A stretch of DNA of 62,798 bases, counting the filler, from Rhabdomonas costata (taxonomy: Eukaryota): assembly GCA_019059605.1 (NCBI GenBank). It is 51 parts of 51 records of this genome, joined end to end, with 100 filler letters (N's around TTAATTAATTAA, not from the genome) between each part and the next. Parts side by side here need not be neighbours in the genome. Positions count along the whole stretch, not along the records: positions 43,175 to 44,309 come from JAHMHO010026950.1; positions 44,410 to 45,542 come from JAHMHO010026951.1; 49 more parts are not named here. One strand, 5' to 3'. Position 1 is the stretch's first letter. Every line of letters begins with the position of its first letter. Made by a program: the position numbers and the translations under genes. This document shows, piece after piece, positions 4,936 to 55,280 of the stretch. The notes under the pieces are model-generated. The model did not search any database. It had not been told where the DNA came from and saw only the letters and a program-made list of their open reading frames with translations.

Positions 4936-5405
4936 TGTTGGTGGGCCTTGTCTTGGGAGTCCGGCAGCCAGACTTTAATGGAGAAGCTACCGTGTTGCTT
5001 CCGGAACACCGTTGCCCCGTGGATGATGCCAGGGATGTGCCCCTCCGTGAGAGCCTGAATAACGCACAGCCAAACCAGCTCAACGTTGTGCTCCGCGCTG
5101 TGGCTGAGCTTGAAGTGCCCTCCAACACGATTCACCTCGTCCTCATAGATCGGGCGAATCCCCTCGCGGAACACGTGCAGGCTGCTGTATTGCCCCAGCA
5201 GCCCTGGGCGGTGCCGCTGCAGGGCTCCCACAAGCCCTTCTCCCCTGGGGTGGGCCTCCAGGATCCGCAGCTGAGCCTGCTCCGCGTGCCCCCGGACGGC
5301 TTTCCAGGTGTCGGTCCAGAAGTACCACACCCCTGAATGTAGGCCCTCGGAATGGAAGGCATCACTGGTCGTCGCGGAGTCCAACTCCGACTGAGCGGAC
5401 TGCAT
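4936..5405 (-). CDS. Divergent eIF4E-family cap-binding protein (3' truncated; start may lie further upstream)
   Basis: WYFW, LHVFREGIRPIYEDEVNRVGGHF, ELVWL, HGATVFRK and IKVW follow the eIF4E motif order. Confidence 0.85.
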
Positions 5406-6674
5406 TGGGAGTGAAACGATCCCGGACGAGGTATATTCCGACGCGCCCACACCCAGAGCAGAAGAAAGGCCTTCCGCTTCAACTTCGACTTGGTAAGGGG
5501 TTAGGGTTACAGGAGCTGTGACCGGCAAAATGCCCGAGTTCTGCTGCAGTGTACCCGGCAGATCGCGGGCTGTGGCATGGTATTCTCGGAAAGGATGCAT
5601 ATTTACAAAGAAAAGAAATGACTTGAGAAAAGCGCACCGCAATTCAAACAGAGATCAGAGCCTTTCAGGTCCAGTGGGGGTTGAGCCCAACTGTTCATCA
5701 TGGAGGGCGCGTCCCTCGGTCTGCCGAAATAATCGAGGGCCTTTTCGACTCCCCTTATATTTCTTTAGAACAGTCCACATGTCGCTTCGCGACAGTTTTG
5801 TTTTAAACATATTGTTCTAAAAGGCGAACAGCAAAATGGCTATCTGAGACGTCTGGCTTGAATGGCAACAGAAGGGCAATCTACTCACCGCACAGGTTTC
5901 GCGTCTCGCGCAAAAAAAAACATCAAGGCGACTGCAAATCTCTTCTGAAAGCTAAAATGCACCTCAGGGGTCGGATGCATTTTTTGTGTGTGGGTGTTAA
6001 ACGGTTTAAAGACGTTAAACGATAAGGTTCAAAACTATGCTCGCTGGTAGGCTCAGCCACCACAAACAANNNNNNNNNNNNNNNNNNNNNNNNNNNNNNN
6101 NNNNNNNNNNNNNTTAATTAATTAANNNNNNNNNNNNNNNNNNNNNNNNNNNNNNNNNNNNNNNNNNNNTTGTGGGGGGGTCCGGGTCCGCTAAGTATTG
6201 TTATGCCGGGCCCATAAAGGCGCTTGTTAACAGCCCACGTACGAGGAGAGGGGCCATAATTGCACTTGCGCCAGCATTCTTGATCTGTGCCTGGGGTGTG
6301 TGCGTCGGACTTTTGACAGTGGACAATGTGGCGTTCTCTGCTTGGCTTCTTAATATTGTTATACTTGCGTCCTCGTCGAGTTGTGCAGCGGAAAAATATT
6401 GGAAGAATATTCTTGACCATGAATTACCAGTATTGATGGGGTTCGCCTCTGCTGGGTTTGTATTTTAGTGCGTTTTCACCGGCGTGTGTCATCCATGTCA
6501 GTCCCATGTAGTGAATGCTTCTGTACAGGAGGTCACAACATGGGGTCGTTGTCCTGGTTCATGGAGGGTGCGAGTTTGCAAGCGCATATAGGACGTTGCC
6601 TTGCGCTGAGTTAACTACATGCATGTTTGTATGGGGAGCTGCGTTCAGATTTGCCTTGGGCCATTGCCCAACAG

Positions 6675-41671: not shown

Positions 41672-43300
41672 CGAAGTTCTGTATTTTCTAGGTAGTGTTT
41701 TAGCCAGGGAACTCTGAATCCTTTCCCTTTCTCTCTCTCTCCCTCTCATTCTGTTCTCGGGCCCCTTTGCTCCGCAGTCCCCTTCTCCCGCACCCCTCGA
41801 TAGATTTGATGTACTTCTCTCCTACGTCACCCCAACCACAANNNNNNNNNNNNNNNNNNNNNNNNNNNNNNNNNNNNNNNNNNNNTTAATTAATTAANNN
41901 NNNNNNNNNNNNNNNNNNNNNNNNNNNNNNNNNNNNNNNNNCAGGACACTACGGGGAGTCCCCCGGGCGGCTCCAGCTCGTAAATGAGCTCCCCGGTTTG
42001 CGTCTTTGGGGCACTAACAGGGTACGAAAAGCACTGGTTTTTTTGCATGGTGTGTGGTGTGGTATGACCTGTAGCATTTTCCGTGGATGTAATTTGGTTT
42101 TAACTGGGGCGGGGGGAAAGAAGAACAAAAAGTGGGAGGTGACCAATGTCCCCTCGCTCGCAGTTGTTACAGTTGTTGCAGTCGTGACTTCTGCTTGCAG
42201 CGGTGCTTCTGCTCCGTGGACGACCCGGGCTGGCGAATGAGCACAAAAAGAAAGTGCAAGGGAGCACTTTCCATGCTGCTTGTGAGTATTTCCGCGATAC
42301 AGGATGTTTAGGGGCTTTTTTCTCATTGTTTTCCAGCATATTATCCCCCATTTCTATGCCTCATCGTGCTCTGCCGTTCAACATCCGTGATCCGCTTTGT
42401 CCTGTCTTGTCTCGTGTTGTGCTGTGCTCGTGTGCAGGTGTGTAGTAGTGTGGGACGTACCGGGGACGTTGTGCTACAGTATTGCCAGTGCTACTTGTTC
42501 TTGCCTTGGTGCTCACCATTCAGCGTGCTTTCTTTGGAACCGTGTTGCTTAGCAGGAGAGGGAGTACAGGGGGTAACCGCACTACCAACCGTGGATTCCC
42601 AAGTAAATGAAAGAGCAAAGGAGAAGTCTGGTCATTTCATGGTCGTTTGCCCGTGGTCTGCACCGGGCTTTTGGCGCCTGCTTCCGTCAAGACAACAACC
42701 GTCCACAAATGTTCCAGCAGGCCAAAAGCACTAGACAGAAGAAAAGGGCATGCGAAGAAATTGAAATCTGTGCCAACAGGTAGCGTTCCGGGAACATGGC
42801 GCCGGGTTTTCCCAAACAGTTCTCGGAAATGCAATGCCCAAATACCCCTGTCAGGACCAGGGGTACCGCCTTGAAAACTTTTCAGGTTCACAGGTTGGAG
42901 CCGCCAAAAAGGCAACGGGGCGGAAAAGCAAATTGATGAGAAAAGGCGGTGAAAAAAGGGTGGAAAGGTTGCCAACGTTAAAAAAGTTTGTTATGAAGCG
43001 GGCCATGGCATTAGTACGACAGAGGGAATGCGGGAAGCCGAGCCGAATGCCCGAGGATCGCAGCCCCACCCCCCNNNNNNNNNNNNNNNNNNNNNNNNNN
43101 NNNNNNNNNNNNNNNNNNTTAATTAATTAANNNNNNNNNNNNNNNNNNNNNNNNNNNNNNNNNNNNNNNNNNNNGTGGGTTGGTTTACTCCTAATACCTC
43201 GTAGCTGCTTCACGCAACTTGCTGGTGGGACGCCTTACATGTCTTTTCCGAAGGTCTGACTGAGGAGGGAGGTTTGTAGCGCTCACTTTCCCTGCGTTAG

Positions 43301-43476
43301 GGATGACTAATACTCACTCCGTGATGACTGTGGTGGCAACGGAGCGCGCGGTGTTCTACCGCGAGCGCGCTGCGGGGATGTATTCCTCGCTGGTCTACGG
43401 TCTGGTGGTGAGGCTGGCAGAGATGCCGTACCAGATTGTCGTCAGCTTCATCTTTGTCGCGATTTTCTACTGGATG
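43301..43476 (+). CDS. ABCG/PDR transporter transmembrane-domain exon
   Basis: VVATERAVFYRERAAGMYSSLVYGLVVRLAEMPYQIVVSFIFVAIFYWM; the donor merges into a (GT)n run at 43477-43501. Confidence 0.95.
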
Positions 43477-43783
43477 GTGTGTGTGTGTGTGTGTGTGTGT
43501 GAGTATCGGGAGCGGAAAAGTCGCAGCGACGAAGAGAGGAGCGCAGCAGTAACGGGTGGCAGCGGGTGCAGCAGAGGTGGAAACCAAGCGACCCCAAGCG
43601 GTGAGCAGGACCTGAGAAGGATGGGATGGGAAGCGACGACCCGAAATGGGCAGTGGACACCAGGGAGGGGAGCGACCAGACCAAGCAGGTGGGAAGGGAG
43701 TGAAGGGAAGCACACACAGACAGGAGTGCGGGCAATAGCAGGACCCAGGCTTACGCGAAGGCGTAAGGGGGACCTGCAGGCCA

Positions 43784-43876
43784 ACCGGGGTGTACGAGCG
43801 CGGAGGGTTGGGCACCCATGAAGAGTACTCCAAACGCGCCAGTCGGGGTTCCCAAGGCCCCGCGTACCCCCACGGT
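43784..43876 (+). ncRNA. Candidate twister-like ribozyme fold (P5-type permutation), atypical
   Basis: P5 GTACG/CGTAC (43792-96/43863-67), P2 CGCG/CGCG (43799-802/43835-38), GA+GGG (43803-07) pairing with loop CCC (43851-53), AAA before P2, P4 CGGG/CCCG around GTTCCCAAGGC, CC/GG second pseudoknot. Confidence 0.5.
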
Positions 43877-45642
43877 CGTACGTCCCGAGGGGACAAGAAC
43901 CCTGCGAGGCAGGGGAAAGGTACGGGGGGGAAACGCGAGTCTTCCCCAGAAAAAATAATTTTGGCCAAGTGCCCTAAGTGTGTGATCTGCAACTGGTCAG
44001 AATGTGCTTGCAAACCCGCTAACCCGTTAACCCGCTCGCCGTACGTTAACTTGCGGCTCAGCCATTTGATGGTGAGCCTAACCTGGTTTCCTGCTGTTAT
44101 GGAATCCAAATTACCTGGAGGCGACTTTCTTACCCAAACTCTGGCCACTCAGCCCGAACCCTAAACTTGGTAAAGGTGTGCGCATAAGGGTGCGGTATCG
44201 GTGTTATTAGGTGGCATGTATCAGTCGATTCAACAGTCGACCACCTTTGTACGTTACACCGTGAACTCAGAACCATGGCAGCCTGTGTTTTTTTTGTGGG
44301 CGTTATGCCNNNNNNNNNNNNNNNNNNNNNNNNNNNNNNNNNNNNNNNNNNNNTTAATTAATTAANNNNNNNNNNNNNNNNNNNNNNNNNNNNNNNNNNN
44401 NNNNNNNNNGTTCGAGCCCTTACGGTACCTTAACCCGGAGGTGTACAGCGCGATGGCGGCGGTTGTGTGGGACCACCGCCCGGGGAACTCCCCCCGCGCT
44501 CTTTCCCCGAAGTGCGTGGTGAACTGTATCCAGACCACGTGTGGAAACCGATACCGCGCATTCCTTTTTCTCGCGGGGAAGTCGCCTTCGCTTGTAGATC
44601 TACTATAGTTTTCTTTCAACGCTGCTTCAGCGCAGTATGTTGATTTTCCTGCACTGCTTGATGGCAAAGTTGCCTGCTGCTGTGAGGACAAGGATGAGCA
44701 AAGCCATAAAACTTAATTTTGACAACCACACCACCACCACCACCACTGTGGGTTGGGAGCCTGAGCCCAGCCCATCCAGTATAGAGGGCGATATAAGTGT
44801 TCCGTTTTTTCGTACATTGGTGGACTTCGCAAGAGGTTAGAGGTCAATGCACATGACTTCTGGGACTCCATAGGAGATTTTGCAGGGATGAGAGGACAGT
44901 GCAGCGTCTCCCCTGAAGTTCCGTTAACACTTTGCCGGGCGTTAGATGGTGAAGTACTCACTCCAGTTTTGCAGCAGGTTGGCTTTATTCGGGATGTGTT
45001 GGGCGGCAGAGCGCAGCGGAGCGGATCCTGGGTACAATCAAAGGCGGGGGATTCATCAGTAGTACCTTTGTCATTTTTTCTGCGGATGGCCTCCGTCTAA
45101 TTTTTTCTTCTTTCCCACCTGCACCTGAATGGAGTCGAAGAGCATTCAAATTCTGCCACTCAATATCGTTTTTGCTTAAGAAAAGACAGAGGTTCTGCCC
45201 GGTTTAAGGTCCCAAATGTTCCCGTATACCACCCTTGATCCGTGCAAGTAATTGGGAATCCGCCCATGTATCAATCTACCTATGATGGAACATGGGCCCA
45301 CCCCTGAGTACATGTTTCCGACATTGCCCCACTCCACGTACTCTGGAAAAACTTGAATTTCTCTCAGCCCAATCCCCATGCCACTGAACTGGCAGCTGCT
45401 TGTTGGCTTCCTCGCTGCGGTGTGGTTCACGGTGGCTCTATTGGTGACGCTCCCGCTGCCCTCCTCCTCGATCCGCGAGATGGGATCACCCCAGTCAACG
45501 ATTTGCCGCACCTCGGAATGCTTCATGGATCTTGCCGAGACGNNNNNNNNNNNNNNNNNNNNNNNNNNNNNNNNNNNNNNNNNNNNTTAATTAATTAANN
45601 NNNNNNNNNNNNNNNNNNNNNNNNNNNNNNNNNNNNNNNNNN

Positions 45643-46484
45643 AGCAATTCCATATCCATGTCCACACCAAAGACTCCTGTGATGTTAGCGCCAGCCATGG
45701 TAGCCACCGAACGCGCGTATAGAAGGGCAGGAGGCTTGACAATTCCATCCAAAACCTCAGCATAAACACTCGAAACCCAAAACAAGGGTATGCGTTGTAT
45801 GAGAGTTAACTCCTCTAACGGGTATGCGTTGTATGAGAGATCAGCATCTTTCCAAAGTAAATAATGTTGGCTCCCCTTGGGACTTTTCTCCCAATACACG
45901 TAACGCTGGTCATTGCCCATTGCATAAAACGTGTAATTGGAGGAGCTGCCCCACCCGCACTCCGTCCATTGCCCTGACATCACAGGATTGGGCTCATCAT
46001 AGTAGATGTACTTGAACGGTAGCGAGCGGAAGCTTTGAATTTGTTCCAGAAATTGCACGAGGAACTCATCCAGTGTAAGTTCAGGGGAGTCCAGGTTGCA
46101 GGACTTGAGGAAGCCCATTTTCCATGCCTTAAGAAGGGCTTCCGTGGCTCCCTCCGCGGCATCCAGACGACGGTTTATGGTTTCGCCCACGAGTTCCATA
46201 GCTCTAAAATGGAGTCTGAACACAGCGCCATCTATTCGGGTGTGGACTTCCCACGTCATTTGCAGCGCCTGCTCGGCAGTATTATCCGAATGATTGGAGA
46301 CATCTGCGGCCAAGTTGATGCGAGACTGGGAGGCATGGGTGACCATTTGAGCCACGGCTGCCGCGTTGCTGGCGCAGTCGAGGGCTTCAAAGGCGTAGAC
46401 CGAAAGTAGCACTCCAAATATGCCACCGGAAACAAAAACAAAGGTAACCACTCCAATTGCGAGGACAAGAAGACGCAACTTCAT
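45643..46484 (-). CDS. Membrane receptor N-terminus: transmembrane helix plus extracellular Cache-like domain (3' truncated)
   Basis: 280 open codons with no intron: MKLRLLVLAIGVVTFVFVSGGIFGVLLSVYAF...WVSSVY...ALLYARSV...ITGVFGVDMDM (Cache GVxGxD end). Confidence 0.75.
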
Positions 46485-46700
46485 CTGACAATCTAACAAT
46501 CAGTTACATTCTTCCCATTATGTACAGAGGCAGAGTGGAGCCAAAAAGCTGACCCTGCAAAGAAAGAGAGGGTCCACGATTTCCATTTCAAAAGCCAGGA
46601 AGCAGCACAGGAAAGTCAAACCAAAGAAGAAAGACGGAAATCTACGTATTCAGAAACCTACAAGCTTGGGCCGTCTGTTGCTTAACATAACATCAGCAAT

Positions 46701-46875: not shown

Positions 46876-47989
46876 GGGGTTTGGTGACCAGCTCCACCGC
46901 AATGGTGACCCGCTTGGTCTGCTCCACGGAAAGCCCGCTGCCCTTTTCTCCGATCAGCTGGTACTGGATCGGTCGAAGCCCCAAGAGGTCCATGACCTTC
47001 TGCACCTGCTCCTCCTTTTGCTCCTTCGACATTGACCTATCACCCAACATCCACCTATCACCAGAAGCCTTATGAGAAATAAAATTGGGGCATGAACACT
47101 CGTGGCTGGGTGTAAACGCCCTTCCATAAGCAGGCTGCGATTCGCGTCACAAGCGAAGGTGCTGCGCATTTTGAATTGAATGAACGAATATAAACAGGGG
47201 GGGGGGTAAAATGGACTAGACAGAAAAAAACCATAGTCGGAAACCCTACACGGCGCCTGATTTCATGGGAAGTTTAAAAGCCTGTGAGGGGGATTGGATG
47301 AGCAGAGAAGAAGGGGTCACGCGGCACCTAGGCAGGCGGAGGTACCCCGAGAACCGCATTGCCTCCAGCACCGTCGCAAGGGGGCTGTGAATATCGCTCT
47401 GCTCTACGTACCTGCGAGGTGTTCGACATGGTGAGGAAAGGGGGCGAAGGTTTGGTCACTGACGAAGGTTATCCTTTTGTTGTGATTTTCCGTCGTCTTC
47501 CCGCGGGAAGGACAAGACCAGAATGTATCTGCGTGCGTTCTGCCGATGTGCACATGGAACACTTGCATGAGAACAGTGAGCAGTGCGTATCAAAAGACAA
47601 GGCAAAAATGAAGGACTTTGGCCCAATTGACGTTGGGGGGGGGCAGAAAATTATAAATAGTTTGTTCGTGCTTTCACCTGAAATGACTTTTTTAGAGAAG
47701 GAGAAGAGGGTTGCACCAAAAGAATTCTCTAACCACATGACACATGGTTTTTCGGGGAGGCCTAGCTAAGGAGTGAATTCCCCAAATTAATCCTCGGCAT
47801 CATTGGGAAAACATCCAAGCGAGCGCAGCCTTAACCTTTAGATGACAGCTGGAAGAAAAAAAAGGGGGGGGGGTTCTACCCGCTGATCCGCCCGAACTCC
47901 CTTTTGGACATGGGCTTTCCGTTCAGCAGGATATCACCCTCGATCTTCCCCGTGGTCTTGCGCCCAGCCAGGACGTCCATCAAGGTGGT
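46876..47989 (-). CDS. PDR-type ABCG transporter NBD2, exons 47989-47880, 47411-47328, 47036-46876
   Basis: [24 protein letters not shown]...[32 protein letters not shown]...[20 protein letters not shown]; all phases are consistent. Confidence 0.96.
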
Positions 47990-48108
47990 CTTGAACCCCC
48001 CCCCCCAANNNNNNNNNNNNNNNNNNNNNNNNNNNNNNNNNNNNNNNNNNNNTTAATTAATTAANNNNNNNNNNNNNNNNNNNNNNNNNNNNNNNNNNNN
48101 NNNNNNNN

Positions 48109-48428
48109 TACAGTGGGCCCTGTCCCTTGCCCTACCCGTGAGGACTGCGAGATGATGGCAGTCCGGGTGGAGGTCCGGGACACGGGGATCGGGCTCAGCG
48201 CGGAGCAGCAGGGGCGGCTTTTCCAGGCCTTCGGGCAGGCCACCGCGGAGACCTGGGCACAGTACGGGGGCAGCGGGCTTGGGCTGGTGATCGCAGCGAA
48301 GCTGGTGCAGCTGATGGGAGGTCGGCTTTTCGTGGACCCGGAGGGGACTGCGGTGGGTCGAGGGGCGACGTTTGTAGTGGAGGTGACGCTGCCCACTGCG
48401 GAAATTTCCCCCGACCTGATCCCCAGAG
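48109..48428 (+). CDS. Histidine kinase HATPase_c domain exon
   Basis: VEVRDTGIGLS (G1), RLFQAFGQ (F), YGGSGLGLVIAAKLVQLMGG (G2), GRGATFVVEVTLP (G3); GT donor at 48429. Confidence 0.95.
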
Positions 48429-49434
48429 GTCTGCCGTCTTTTCCTTGTATGCCATGCCTATGCATCACGGGTTACGCCTGCACCTTTGCCATCCAATCTC
48501 ACACGTGCTACGCTCCGCGGGTCCGAGGCGCGCCCGTTTCCTTTTCCTGTTATTCTATGTTTCTGGGACTTTTTCTTTGCATGCGTGTTCTTTCTTTTTG
48601 CACTCATTCTCCGCTTTTCATTTTCGTTCGTTTTCTTTTGCCCGCTCATCTGGTGCTCTATTGCTGTTGCTTGACTCCTTCGAGCCCATGAAAAATATTC
48701 GCAAATTTTCGTTTCCACGAAAACCCATTTTTCTCTGTCTTCGAAGGTGCTTCAGAGCTGGCGTTGCAACCGGTGAGCTCGTTCATCACGGCGGGAATCC
48801 ATGATTACAGTATGCTCAGGCCCACCCGTCATCTATCAGCCAGACCGCTCCCCCTTTCGCCATTTGTTGCGCGCACTCGCACTTGTGCTGTCGCTGTCAC
48901 AAGCAAACAAACAAAAAAGTGCTGCGCACCACCACCTGCCTGTGCTGTTATCTTGGCCTGCTCCTTCTATCCCGGGACCGAACCTTTCGCAGAACAACCG
49001 ACACCGTCACCAAGGCAACCGACACCGTCACGAAGGCTTTTAGATCAATTTGTCTTCCTTCCGTTGGTCGTTTTGGTCGCACCCCCACTTCTGCCTTAGA
49101 ACTACCGTCTCCTTCTGACGTTACTATTGAAATATCCTCCCTGCTCTCTTTCCCCTTCTCAGCCCCCAAAAGCAGCGGCGCTTCCCTTCGGCCCTTGAGC
49201 TCCCTCGTGGTCACTGCGCCACCCTCTACCACCCCCCCCACNNNNNNNNNNNNNNNNNNNNNNNNNNNNNNNNNNNNNNNNNNNNTTAATTAATTAANNN
49301 NNNNNNNNNNNNNNNNNNNNNNNNNNNNNNNNNNNNNNNNNGTTTTTTGTTTAGACGCCAAACAGCCCTTCTGCCCAGGATCCTTACAGCGTCTAAACAA
49401 GAGGTCTAAACAAGAGGCAGGTGGAAGTTCACAC

Positions 49435-54526: not shown

Positions 54527-55235
54527 ATGCTTCTTCATGCCTCCCGTCGTCTGCAGCCGCTGTGGCGGGTGGTTGGCCGTCCGGGCAGGGGGCTCAGGAT
54601 GATCGCCTTGCAGGTGCTGCCCTCGCCCAGCCCACAGTGCATGCAATTCCAGGCCTCCTCTGGGGCCTTCTTGGAGCCCATGGCTGCAGTCAATTACCAC
54701 GCCGCAAAGTTCGCTGACAACTCCCCGCTGGTCCGCCCGCTGTTCCAAATCACCGGAGTAAAGGTACCCCCACACACTTCCAAACTACACACAGGCACAC
54801 ACAGCACCCTATCCCTTAAAGTCTCCGAGCCATTTCATGAGCAATCCTTGAAGTGCTCCAGTTTTTGAAAATGTACAGGATAGAGATATGTTGTTGAGTA
54901 CTCCATTTGTGGTTGGGACGTCGACTTCGCAGCTCTCTAAGCTTGCGCTGTTTATTTTTTGCGCGTTTCTCTCTCCACGTGGGCACGTTTGACTATTATT
55001 GAAAACACACCACTGTGTTTTGACTTCGATTTGAAATTGATGCTCTCCACCCCATTCGCTTCAGGCTGTTCTTCTCGCCGATGACCACCTGGCGGTAACT
55101 AAGGAGCCCTCGGCGACCTGGGAGGAGCTCACCCCGAAGATTGAGGCCTCAATCCAGAAGTGGGCCTCGTCGGGGGCCTCTGCTGTGGATAACTCTATCA
55201 ATGACACTCAGGCCGAGCAATCCACCCGTCCCAGC
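54527..55235 (+). CDS. NFU1: NFU1-like Fe-S scaffold protein N-terminal domain with mitochondrial-type presequence, exons 54527-54763 and 55065-55235
   Basis: MLLHASRRLQPLWRVVGRPGRGLR...PSPSPQCMQF...SPLVRPLFQITGVK|AVLLADDHLAVTKEPSATWEELTPKI. Confidence 0.85.
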
Positions 55236-55280
55236 GTATGCGGATGCATACGCTGCACTTTTCCCGTGGATATGATGCTG

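Follow-up and report, generated by a model that had tools for sequence, protein, structure and literature searches.

A candidate type-P5 twister ribozyme in a probable intron of the euglenid Rhabdomonas costata and its relatives in metagenomic contigs

Twister ribozymes form a class of self-cleaving RNA in which three helices (P1, P2 and P4) and two pseudoknots are combined with about ten strongly conserved bases of loops L1 and L4, and their cleavage leaves a 2',3'-cyclic phosphate and a 5'-OH end (Roth et al. 2014, as summarized in PMC5408937). The working rules described for their recognition are a general-base G, a general-acid A, a conserved second A (A2), a short pseudoknot strand of the form 'NC', a complementary long pseudoknot, P2 and P4 (PMC11662667). 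According to the same account P1 is dispensable and L2 variable, and the imperfections reported as tolerated are faults in P1, any of the four bases at position N-1, an insertion after T1 and an insertion at loop position 1 (PMC11662667). A G-to-A change of the general base reduced mean cleavage there from 0.76 only to 0.54 (PMC11662667). We report here a 93-base candidate for this class at positions 43784-43876, plus strand, of a 62,798-nucleotide stretch of Rhabdomonas costata DNA (assembly GCA_019059605.1), the whole of which is referred to as the window; coordinates below are on the plus strand unless otherwise stated. From its sequence, this segment is probably a genuine, selected and divergent twister-class RNA of type P5 and, with somewhat less assurance, we expect the window copy to cleave efficiently. 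As far as its elements tell, the motif is a further example of the known twister class, within the known tolerance of that class.

All elements were found by direct sequence reading at the coordinates, and with the catalytic assignments, that a preliminary description of this DNA had given, and their order is that of the Rfam consensus RF02684. The domain is closed by P5, a 12-pair helix of -20.3 kcal/mol between 43784-43796 (ACCG GGG u GTACG) and 43863-43876 (CGTAC CCC ca CGGT), the inner 7 pairs of which are common to two metagenomic relatives, loci L011 and L027, described below. With both termini in P5 and with P1 and P4 each capped by a loop, the arrangement is that of the type-P5 permutation. 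Within this helix, the two CGCG strands of P2 (3' strand, 43799-43802; 5' strand, 43835-43838) give four G-C or C-G pairs. The 3' strand of L1 (GAGGG, 43803-43807) matches RF02684 consensus positions 5-9 and, under the published rules, comprises the predicted general base G43803, the A.A partner A43804 and the T1 (PK2) strand GGG43805-07. Two U residues (43808-43809), inserted in all three copies at a place that tolerates insertions, separate T1 from the P1 hairpin, which in a constrained fold occupies a 21-nt region (43810-43830) with eight stacked positions and a 5-nt loop. P1 consists of six standard pairs and two C.A mismatches, and the six pairs are kept at 100% across the copies, with one A-U/G.U change. 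Each P1 strand is also near-palindromic (GGGCRCCC at 43810-17 and GAGUACUC at 43823-30, with equivalents in L011 and L027), and the second strand equals the first after four transitions, which accounts for two G.U and two C.A positions.

A single base, C43831, lies between the P1 region and AAA 43832-43834. Placed relative to P2 and P1, A43832 is N-1, A43833 the predicted general acid and A43834 the conserved A2, and under these assignments the cut should fall between A43832 and A43833. Where the window has A at N-1, L011 and L027 have C; next to P1 the scissile N-A step is present, and its A is conserved. On the other side of P2, the T2 (PK1) 5' strand CC (43839-43840), complementary to loop residues G43856 and G43857, is followed by the L2 linker AGU (43841-43843), the same AGU that occurs in an Rfam-verified twister (L005), and then by P4 and its loop (43844-43862). 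The P4 stem (CGGGG/CCCCG, 43844-48/43858-62) encloses the 9-nt L4 loop UUCCCAAGG, whose CCC and GG are the T1 and T2 strands, respectively, and whose AA is conserved. P1, P2 (4 pairs) and P4 (5 pairs) are present in the right order for the class. The conserved bases of L1 and L4 are in place (G43803, A43804, GGG, A43833, A43834 and U-CCC-AA-G) and correspond to the upper-case consensus positions of RF02684 except at N-1 and the first T2 pair. Moreover, the bases at which mutations are reportedly harmful, namely A1, A2, the general-base G and the loop A, are all intact, as are both pseudoknot complementarities.

Several features listed in the preliminary description as departures take on a different appearance beside the published tolerance. 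P4, given there as CGGG/CCCG, is present but one pair longer, and the P1 hairpin is present but weaker than was implied, with its two C.A mismatches. The CC/GG pseudoknot is not a deviation, the rule for this strand being 'NC' (PMC11662667). The extra base of the P4 loop and the two U after GGG are real but occupy insertion-tolerant places and recur in both homologues, so that they are family traits. Of the designation 'variant twister', 'twister' is supported and 'variant' was an overstatement, the departures being within the reported tolerance.

If the RNA folds in the manner that these elements suggest, the 12-pair P5 would close the domain, P2 (CGCG/CGCG) and P4 (CGGGG/CCCCG) would form and the P4 loop would fold back to pair its CCC with GGG43805-07 (T1) and its GG with CC43839-40 (T2). 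The double pseudoknot would place G43803 and A43833 at the scissile phosphate of the A43832-A43833 step, and the 2'-OH of A43832 would attack, with G43803 serving as general base and A43833, through its N3, as general acid. Cleavage is predicted to leave a 2',3'-cyclic phosphate and a 5'-OH and, if the motif is intronic, would cut the transcript before splicing or the intron after its excision.

The improbability of such a match by chance was evident from searches with a descriptor that was set before the controls from the published rules (a 4-bp P2, GAGGG, NAA, NC paired to the loop, a P4 no shorter than 4 bp and the loop CCCAAG). Over the whole window, this descriptor found one site on the plus strand, that at 43784-43876, and none on the minus strand. 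No site was found in first-order Markov sequence, whether trained on the window or on the GC-rich local piece, at 160 million strand-positions for each training set. When the two fixed motifs were permuted in 300 ways of equal composition and applied to the real window, the true motif alone matched and the 299 decoys gave no match. A closing helix as stable as P5 (-20.3 kcal/mol) arose in 130 of 5000 shuffled pairs of flanks; among 15012 real window pairs of equal geometry, 50 were as stable.

Relatives were sought in metagenome contigs with a pattern in which the P2 of the candidate and the twister core bases were fixed while P1, L2, P4 and the flanks were left free, and 33 loci were returned. 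Two of these, L011 (reverse strand) and L027, come from separate contigs of the same metagenome and align with window positions 43787-43870 at 86.4% identity over 81 nt (blastn, E 2.5e-22); the rest of these loci of about 600 nt gave no blastn alignment to the window. In a MAFFT alignment, L011 and L027 are identical at 78 of 78 core positions and 46-54% identical in the flanks. The core being alike while the flanks diverge, conservation is focused on the ribozyme domain and, judged by this pattern, the motif is a member of a small family, of which two metagenomic copies have unrelated flanks and share only the ribozyme domain with the window. Outside the core, L011 and L027 have in common only a 29-nt stretch some 190 nt upstream and, downstream, a diverged block (0/300 shuffles each). 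A weakly conserved block of the window, GAGTCTTCCCCAGAAAAAAT...AGTGTGTG at 43937-43984, is shared with L027 at a similar distance (local alignment score 26, 6/300 shuffles), and local alignment of the window with L011 found no shared flanking block. The family-specific pattern gave 0 hits in viral contigs and 0 in the genome contigs searched, and no second copy was found in the motif contig or in the other 50 pieces of the window by blastn, the descriptor or a family covariance model (R1). The next-best R1 match in the window, at 55221-55261 on the minus strand of another piece (15.1 bits, E 0.058), is probably noise.

The manner in which the copies differ is consistent with selection on paired structure, and the existence of homologues with compensatory changes strengthened the twister reading of the preliminary description. 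The window differs from both L011 and L027 at 11 columns (alignment A2). Four of these differences make up two fully compensatory P4 pairs (CGGGG/CCCCG in the window as opposed to GGAGG/CCTCC; C-G/G-C and G-C/A-U), one is a G.U/A-U change in P1, two are in the P1 loop, two are at the spacer and N-1 and one is at the first loop base. The remaining difference is a U.C mismatch in the window P5 where the homologues pair, and it is the sole lost pair. The outer part of P5 diverges in sequence and yet stays paired: the window has GGG/CCC and ACCG/CGGU, L011 has GA/UC and L027 has CCU/AGG beyond a bulge. Of 87 cells counted over the three sequences, 96.6% were paired, and three pairs show double changes. 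In the 57 columns that were free of the search pattern, 46 are identical and 11 different; random sets of 11 substitutions in these columns broke at most one pair in 1022 of 200000 trials (about 0.5%), and in 1346 of 200000 when six substitutions were required to fall in paired columns. An earlier form of this test (P 0.014; 158/200000) was rejected as biased, since the homologue search had itself fixed 23 of its columns, and was replaced by the test on pattern-free columns. The complementarity of T1 (GGG/CCC) and of T2 (CC/GG) is present in all three copies, with most of the columns fixed by the pattern and none varying, and the single pattern-free pseudoknot pair (columns 60/78, C-G) is conserved in all copies.

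Several results weigh against the assignment. Rfam 15 gave no hit at gathering thresholds over the whole window and its twister models were silent at E<=10 on 701, 111 and 41 nt around the motif, so that the covariance-model check proposed in the preliminary description turned out negative even at that relaxed level. L011 and L027 were likewise without an Rfam twister hit, and the threshold of RF02684 (clan CL00120) was not reached. Since the search pattern fixed 23 columns, the invariance of P2, GAGGG, AA and CCCAAG holds by construction, and T1, P2 and the catalytic bases draw no support from covariation. Since only three sequences are available and two have the same core, the comparison is effectively a single independent one, and shuffle controls for the pairing counts were modest (9/500 and 25/500). 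Covariation thus provides evidence that we regard as real but thin. P1 is imperfect, with two C.A mismatches. The minimum-energy fold of the window copy is an alternative structure of -40.2 kcal/mol in which UUGGG43808-12 pairs with loop CCCAA; the twister-compatible nested fold (-27.7 to -29.9 kcal/mol) is less stable by about 10-12 kcal/mol in a comparison that excludes pseudoknot and tertiary energies, and the minimum free energy of the plus strand is unremarkable (z -0.43). Finally, about 94% of twisters tested in the account of PMC11662667 were active, whereas hits of descriptor searches can be inactive, as were 2 of 3 candidates picked with relaxed descriptors.

The silence of Rfam was not a general failure of the search. 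In the run that covered L011 and L027, 12 of 15 metagenomic loci that had been picked by eye as twister-like from the 33 were recognized as Twister-P5 (RF02684) with 41.3-59.3 bits against a threshold of 37.6. Around the motif itself Rfam matched IRE (13.9 bits) and a flavivirus stem-loop (11.4 bits) and nothing else. The candidate departs from the RF02684 consensus in six ways, each a kind of imperfection that is tolerated according to the CHiTA data (PMC11662667), which together evidently cost it the model score. It is apparently a selected twister missed by the Rfam models. The 12 Rfam-verified twisters scored 12-22 bits under family model R1, a circular result in that the search pattern had made them share 23 bases with the candidate. 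Other loci of the set deserve mention in their own right. On a 40-kb metagenomic contig, L028:243-295 is a weaker Twister-P5 match (22.4 bits, E 0.34) directly upstream of a match at 301-355 (58.5 bits), and the two may form a tandem twister pair. L002:301-350 is twister-like with a 3-pair P1, yet gave no RF02684 hit at E<=10, and L018:294-385, on a 160-kb contig, scored 27.5 bits under R1 and has a plausible P1 and P4.

In L011 and L027, minimum-energy folds contain P5, P2 and P4. In the window copy, the local GC helices P2 and P4 could form before their competing 3' partners are transcribed and, when this is set beside the alternative fold, the window copy may be slower or partly misfolding. 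When a 191-nt region was folded, three modules were found, of which the central one has the exact boundaries of the ribozyme (z -2.39, 3/200 shuffles). The upstream module (43738-43777) is a stem-loop with the CTTACGC/GCGTAAG hairpin of 43750-67 (-25 kcal/mol, z -4.16, 0/200 shuffles). The downstream module (43877-43924) contains GTCCC/GGGAC (43882-94) and CCCTGC/GCAGGG (43900-14) and is closed by CGTAC/GTACG (-22.1 kcal/mol, z -4.12, 0/200 shuffles). The three flanking hairpins noted previously are therefore parts of two strongly folded modules, which might insulate the ribozyme or compete with it. At the place equivalent to the downstream module, L027 has an unrelated 12-pair hairpin (z -4.88) and L011 nothing significant. 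The strings GUACG/CGUAC(G) occur four times (43792-96, 43863-67, 43877-82 and 43919-24), and through them P5 could swap partners with the downstream module, a possible conformational switch.

One explanation other than a functional twister is that the domain is derived from a twister and is now catalytically dead or repurposed, for example as a protein-binding or structural module of a dispersed element or of the intron, or that the window copy misfolds and makes no cut. It would account for a minimum-energy fold that is about 10-12 kcal/mol more stable than the twister fold and differs from it, for the absence of a score with Rfam models, for the T.C mismatch in the window P5 where homologues pair and for the GGGCRCCC and GAGUACUC strands of P1, which are more conserved than a dispensable stem needs; the inactivity of 2 of 3 candidates picked with relaxed descriptors (PMC11662667) points the same way. 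Against it, every base with reportedly harmful mutations is intact and the deviations lie at tolerated places; P2 and P4, being local helices of G-C pairs only, would be expected to form ahead of their competitors, and the energy of the pseudoknots and tertiary contacts was left out of the nested-fold comparison. We consider loss or change of function unlikely on balance.

The likeness to a twister might alternatively be accidental within a repeat that acts as DNA, such as the hairpin end or internal palindrome of a transposon or a satellite. The copies are indeed dispersed among different flanks, microsatellites occur near all of them, the helices are kept equally on both strands and the minus strand folds the more stably of the two (z -2.18). 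A repeat of this kind leaves unexplained why unpaired GA, AA and CCCAAG occur at exact twister positions on one strand and why none of 299 decoy permutations matched, and we hold it to be quite improbable. That non-coding DNA rich in GC and hairpins produced the resemblance purely by chance can be given hardly any credence: the fixed bases alone, with flexible spacing, are expected about once per window (by arithmetic, in agreement with the stage counts of the permutation runs) and there was no Rfam hit, but the full descriptor matched nowhere in 2 x 160 million null positions, few controls equal the closing helix, and the 81-nt homology (E 2.5e-22) is bounded by the motif and diverges in a compensatory manner. 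A genuine, selected twister-class RNA is the reading that we prefer.

The genomic setting of the candidate was read within one piece of the window. The window consists of 51 pieces of 1129-1135 nt separated by 50 identical spacers of the form N44-TTAATTAATTAA-N44, and only positions 43175-44309 are linked to the motif. Since the pieces are separate contigs joined by spacers, gene order, distance and strand are meaningless between them. On the motif piece, an exon fragment at 43264-43476, plus strand, encodes part of the second membrane domain of an ABCG/PDR-type transporter (PF01061 ABC2_membrane, E 4.3e-11) and aligns by tblastn to residues ~1228-1300 of 1450-residue PDR proteins. The homology stops in mid-domain and is followed by GT and a (TG)n microsatellite (43477-43503), where the presumed intron begins. 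On the same strand, 307 nt separate this exon from the motif downstream of it, and the contig ends (44309) 433 nt past the motif, with no acceptor or next exon visible up to that end. The earlier placement of the motif, sense-oriented in an ABC-transporter intron, is plausible in view of the exon, the GT end and the shared strand, but the intron is only half seen; the motif most likely lies inside an intron of the transporter gene. When a further plus-strand ABC exon downstream and the remainder of the gene were sought, only nucleotide-binding domain pieces on the minus strand (46877-48004) came up. Their reading as a convergent fragment of an ABC gene was rejected, the pieces being on another contig, where orientation is uninformative. 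Long open reading frames across the motif (43739-44164, plus strand; 43297-44148, minus strand) gave no Pfam hit and were taken as composition artefacts.

The suggestion that the motif marks the 5' end of a retroelement or retrozyme was not upheld. Open reading frames on the motif piece and neighboring pieces gave no reverse-transcriptase or transposase Pfam hits, no second copy was found in the window and homology between the copies extends upstream of the predicted cut; the contig offers only 433 nt downstream of the motif. The other pieces carry an eIF4E-like exon or open reading frame (4936-5654, minus strand; 96% identity to EukProt RCo034283), an open reading frame of 284 aa without a Pfam family that is conserved in euglenid data (45647-46499, minus strand; 44% identity to RCo051740), the ABC nucleotide-binding exons of 46877-48004 (minus strand), recognized by sequence homology, and a histidine-kinase ATPase domain (48110-48691, plus strand; PF02518, E 9.5e-15). 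RCo is the identifier prefix for R. costata proteins (PMC8219788), and these matches assign the window to that euglenid or to a near relative.

The role of such an RNA in euglenids can be approached only tentatively. The putative element reaches at least ~360 nt in the two metagenomic copies, with conserved blocks ~190 nt upstream and ~90 nt downstream. One speculative possibility, to which we give limited weight, is that a dispersed euglenid element has the twister as its selected core and uses self-cleavage in its own life cycle, for example in RNA processing or circularization; sense copies in introns would then cut host pre-mRNA or the excised intron, and through the GUACG/CGUAC strings the flanking modules could turn P5 on or off. 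Our literature search found no paper linking twisters with euglenids, and the word 'ribozyme' has 0 occurrences in the R. costata genome paper (PMC8219788). If the dispersed-element interpretation is true, this would be, so far as that search shows, the first self-cleaving ribozyme family described in nuclear genomes of Euglenozoa. Twisters are described as widespread, yet a single biological role has been demonstrated (PMC8501958), and a conserved type-P5 twister on the sense strand of a probable intron would offer a tractable case for ribozyme roles in eukaryotic genes. In addition, an apparently selected twister missed by Rfam bears on the completeness of ribozyme censuses.

Compared with known systems, the candidate is closest in architecture to the Twister-P5 family RF02684 (clan CL00120), with which it shares P2, GAGGG, an 8-position P1 hairpin, NAA, the second P2 strand, a 2-nt pseudoknot strand, a short linker and P4, as well as the (U)CCCAAGN P4 loop and the conserved G, A, AA and CCCAA bases. 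It differs from that family in that N-1 is A (C in the homologues) instead of U, the first T2 pair is C-G instead of G-C, two U follow GGG, one base precedes N-1, the loop has 9 nt and P1 contains two C.A mismatches. The RF02684 model is also without a P5 helix, whereas P5 has 9-12 pairs in the candidate family, and the Rfam-verified loci of this study are on metagenomic contigs, whereas the host of the candidate is a eukaryote.

Twisters of the rice type (type P1), as presented in the CHiTA survey, have a P4/L4 of the form CCGG-TCCCAAGC-CCGG, comparable to CGGGG-TTCCCAAGG-CCCCG in the candidate, and share with it the catalytic A and G and the kinds of imperfection that are compatible with activity (PMC11662667). 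In contrast with these RNAs, the candidate is circularly permuted and open at P5 instead of P1. The organism survey section of that work names no euglenid or other protist group, a statement that does not extend to its supplementary lists, which could hold one (PMC11662667).

The only twister role described as demonstrated is the 5' processing by the T-variant twister of Schistosoma Perere-3, like the candidate a variant twister of a dispersed eukaryotic sequence family that is missed by standard models (PMC8501958). In Perere-3, the ribozyme stands at the 5' end of the element, with target-site duplications beside the cut and the retrotransposon body downstream (PMC8501958). In the candidate, by comparison, the predicted cut falls midway through the conserved unit, the upstream half is retained in all three copies and no open reading frame for a reverse transcriptase was seen, although the contig extends only 433 nt past the motif. 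Thus, with a cut in mid-unit and a retained upstream half, the Perere-3 mechanism does not fit as such.

Self-cleaving ribozymes are also carried by animal introns, as in the hepatitis delta virus-like (HDV-like) ribozyme of CPEB3 and in intronic hammerheads. They differ from the candidate in class and lineage, and the intron status of the candidate comes from one exon boundary. A sense-strand ribozyme in its probable intron, where cleavage would compete with splicing, is what the candidate has in common with them, and these animal RNAs are its nearest functional analogy.

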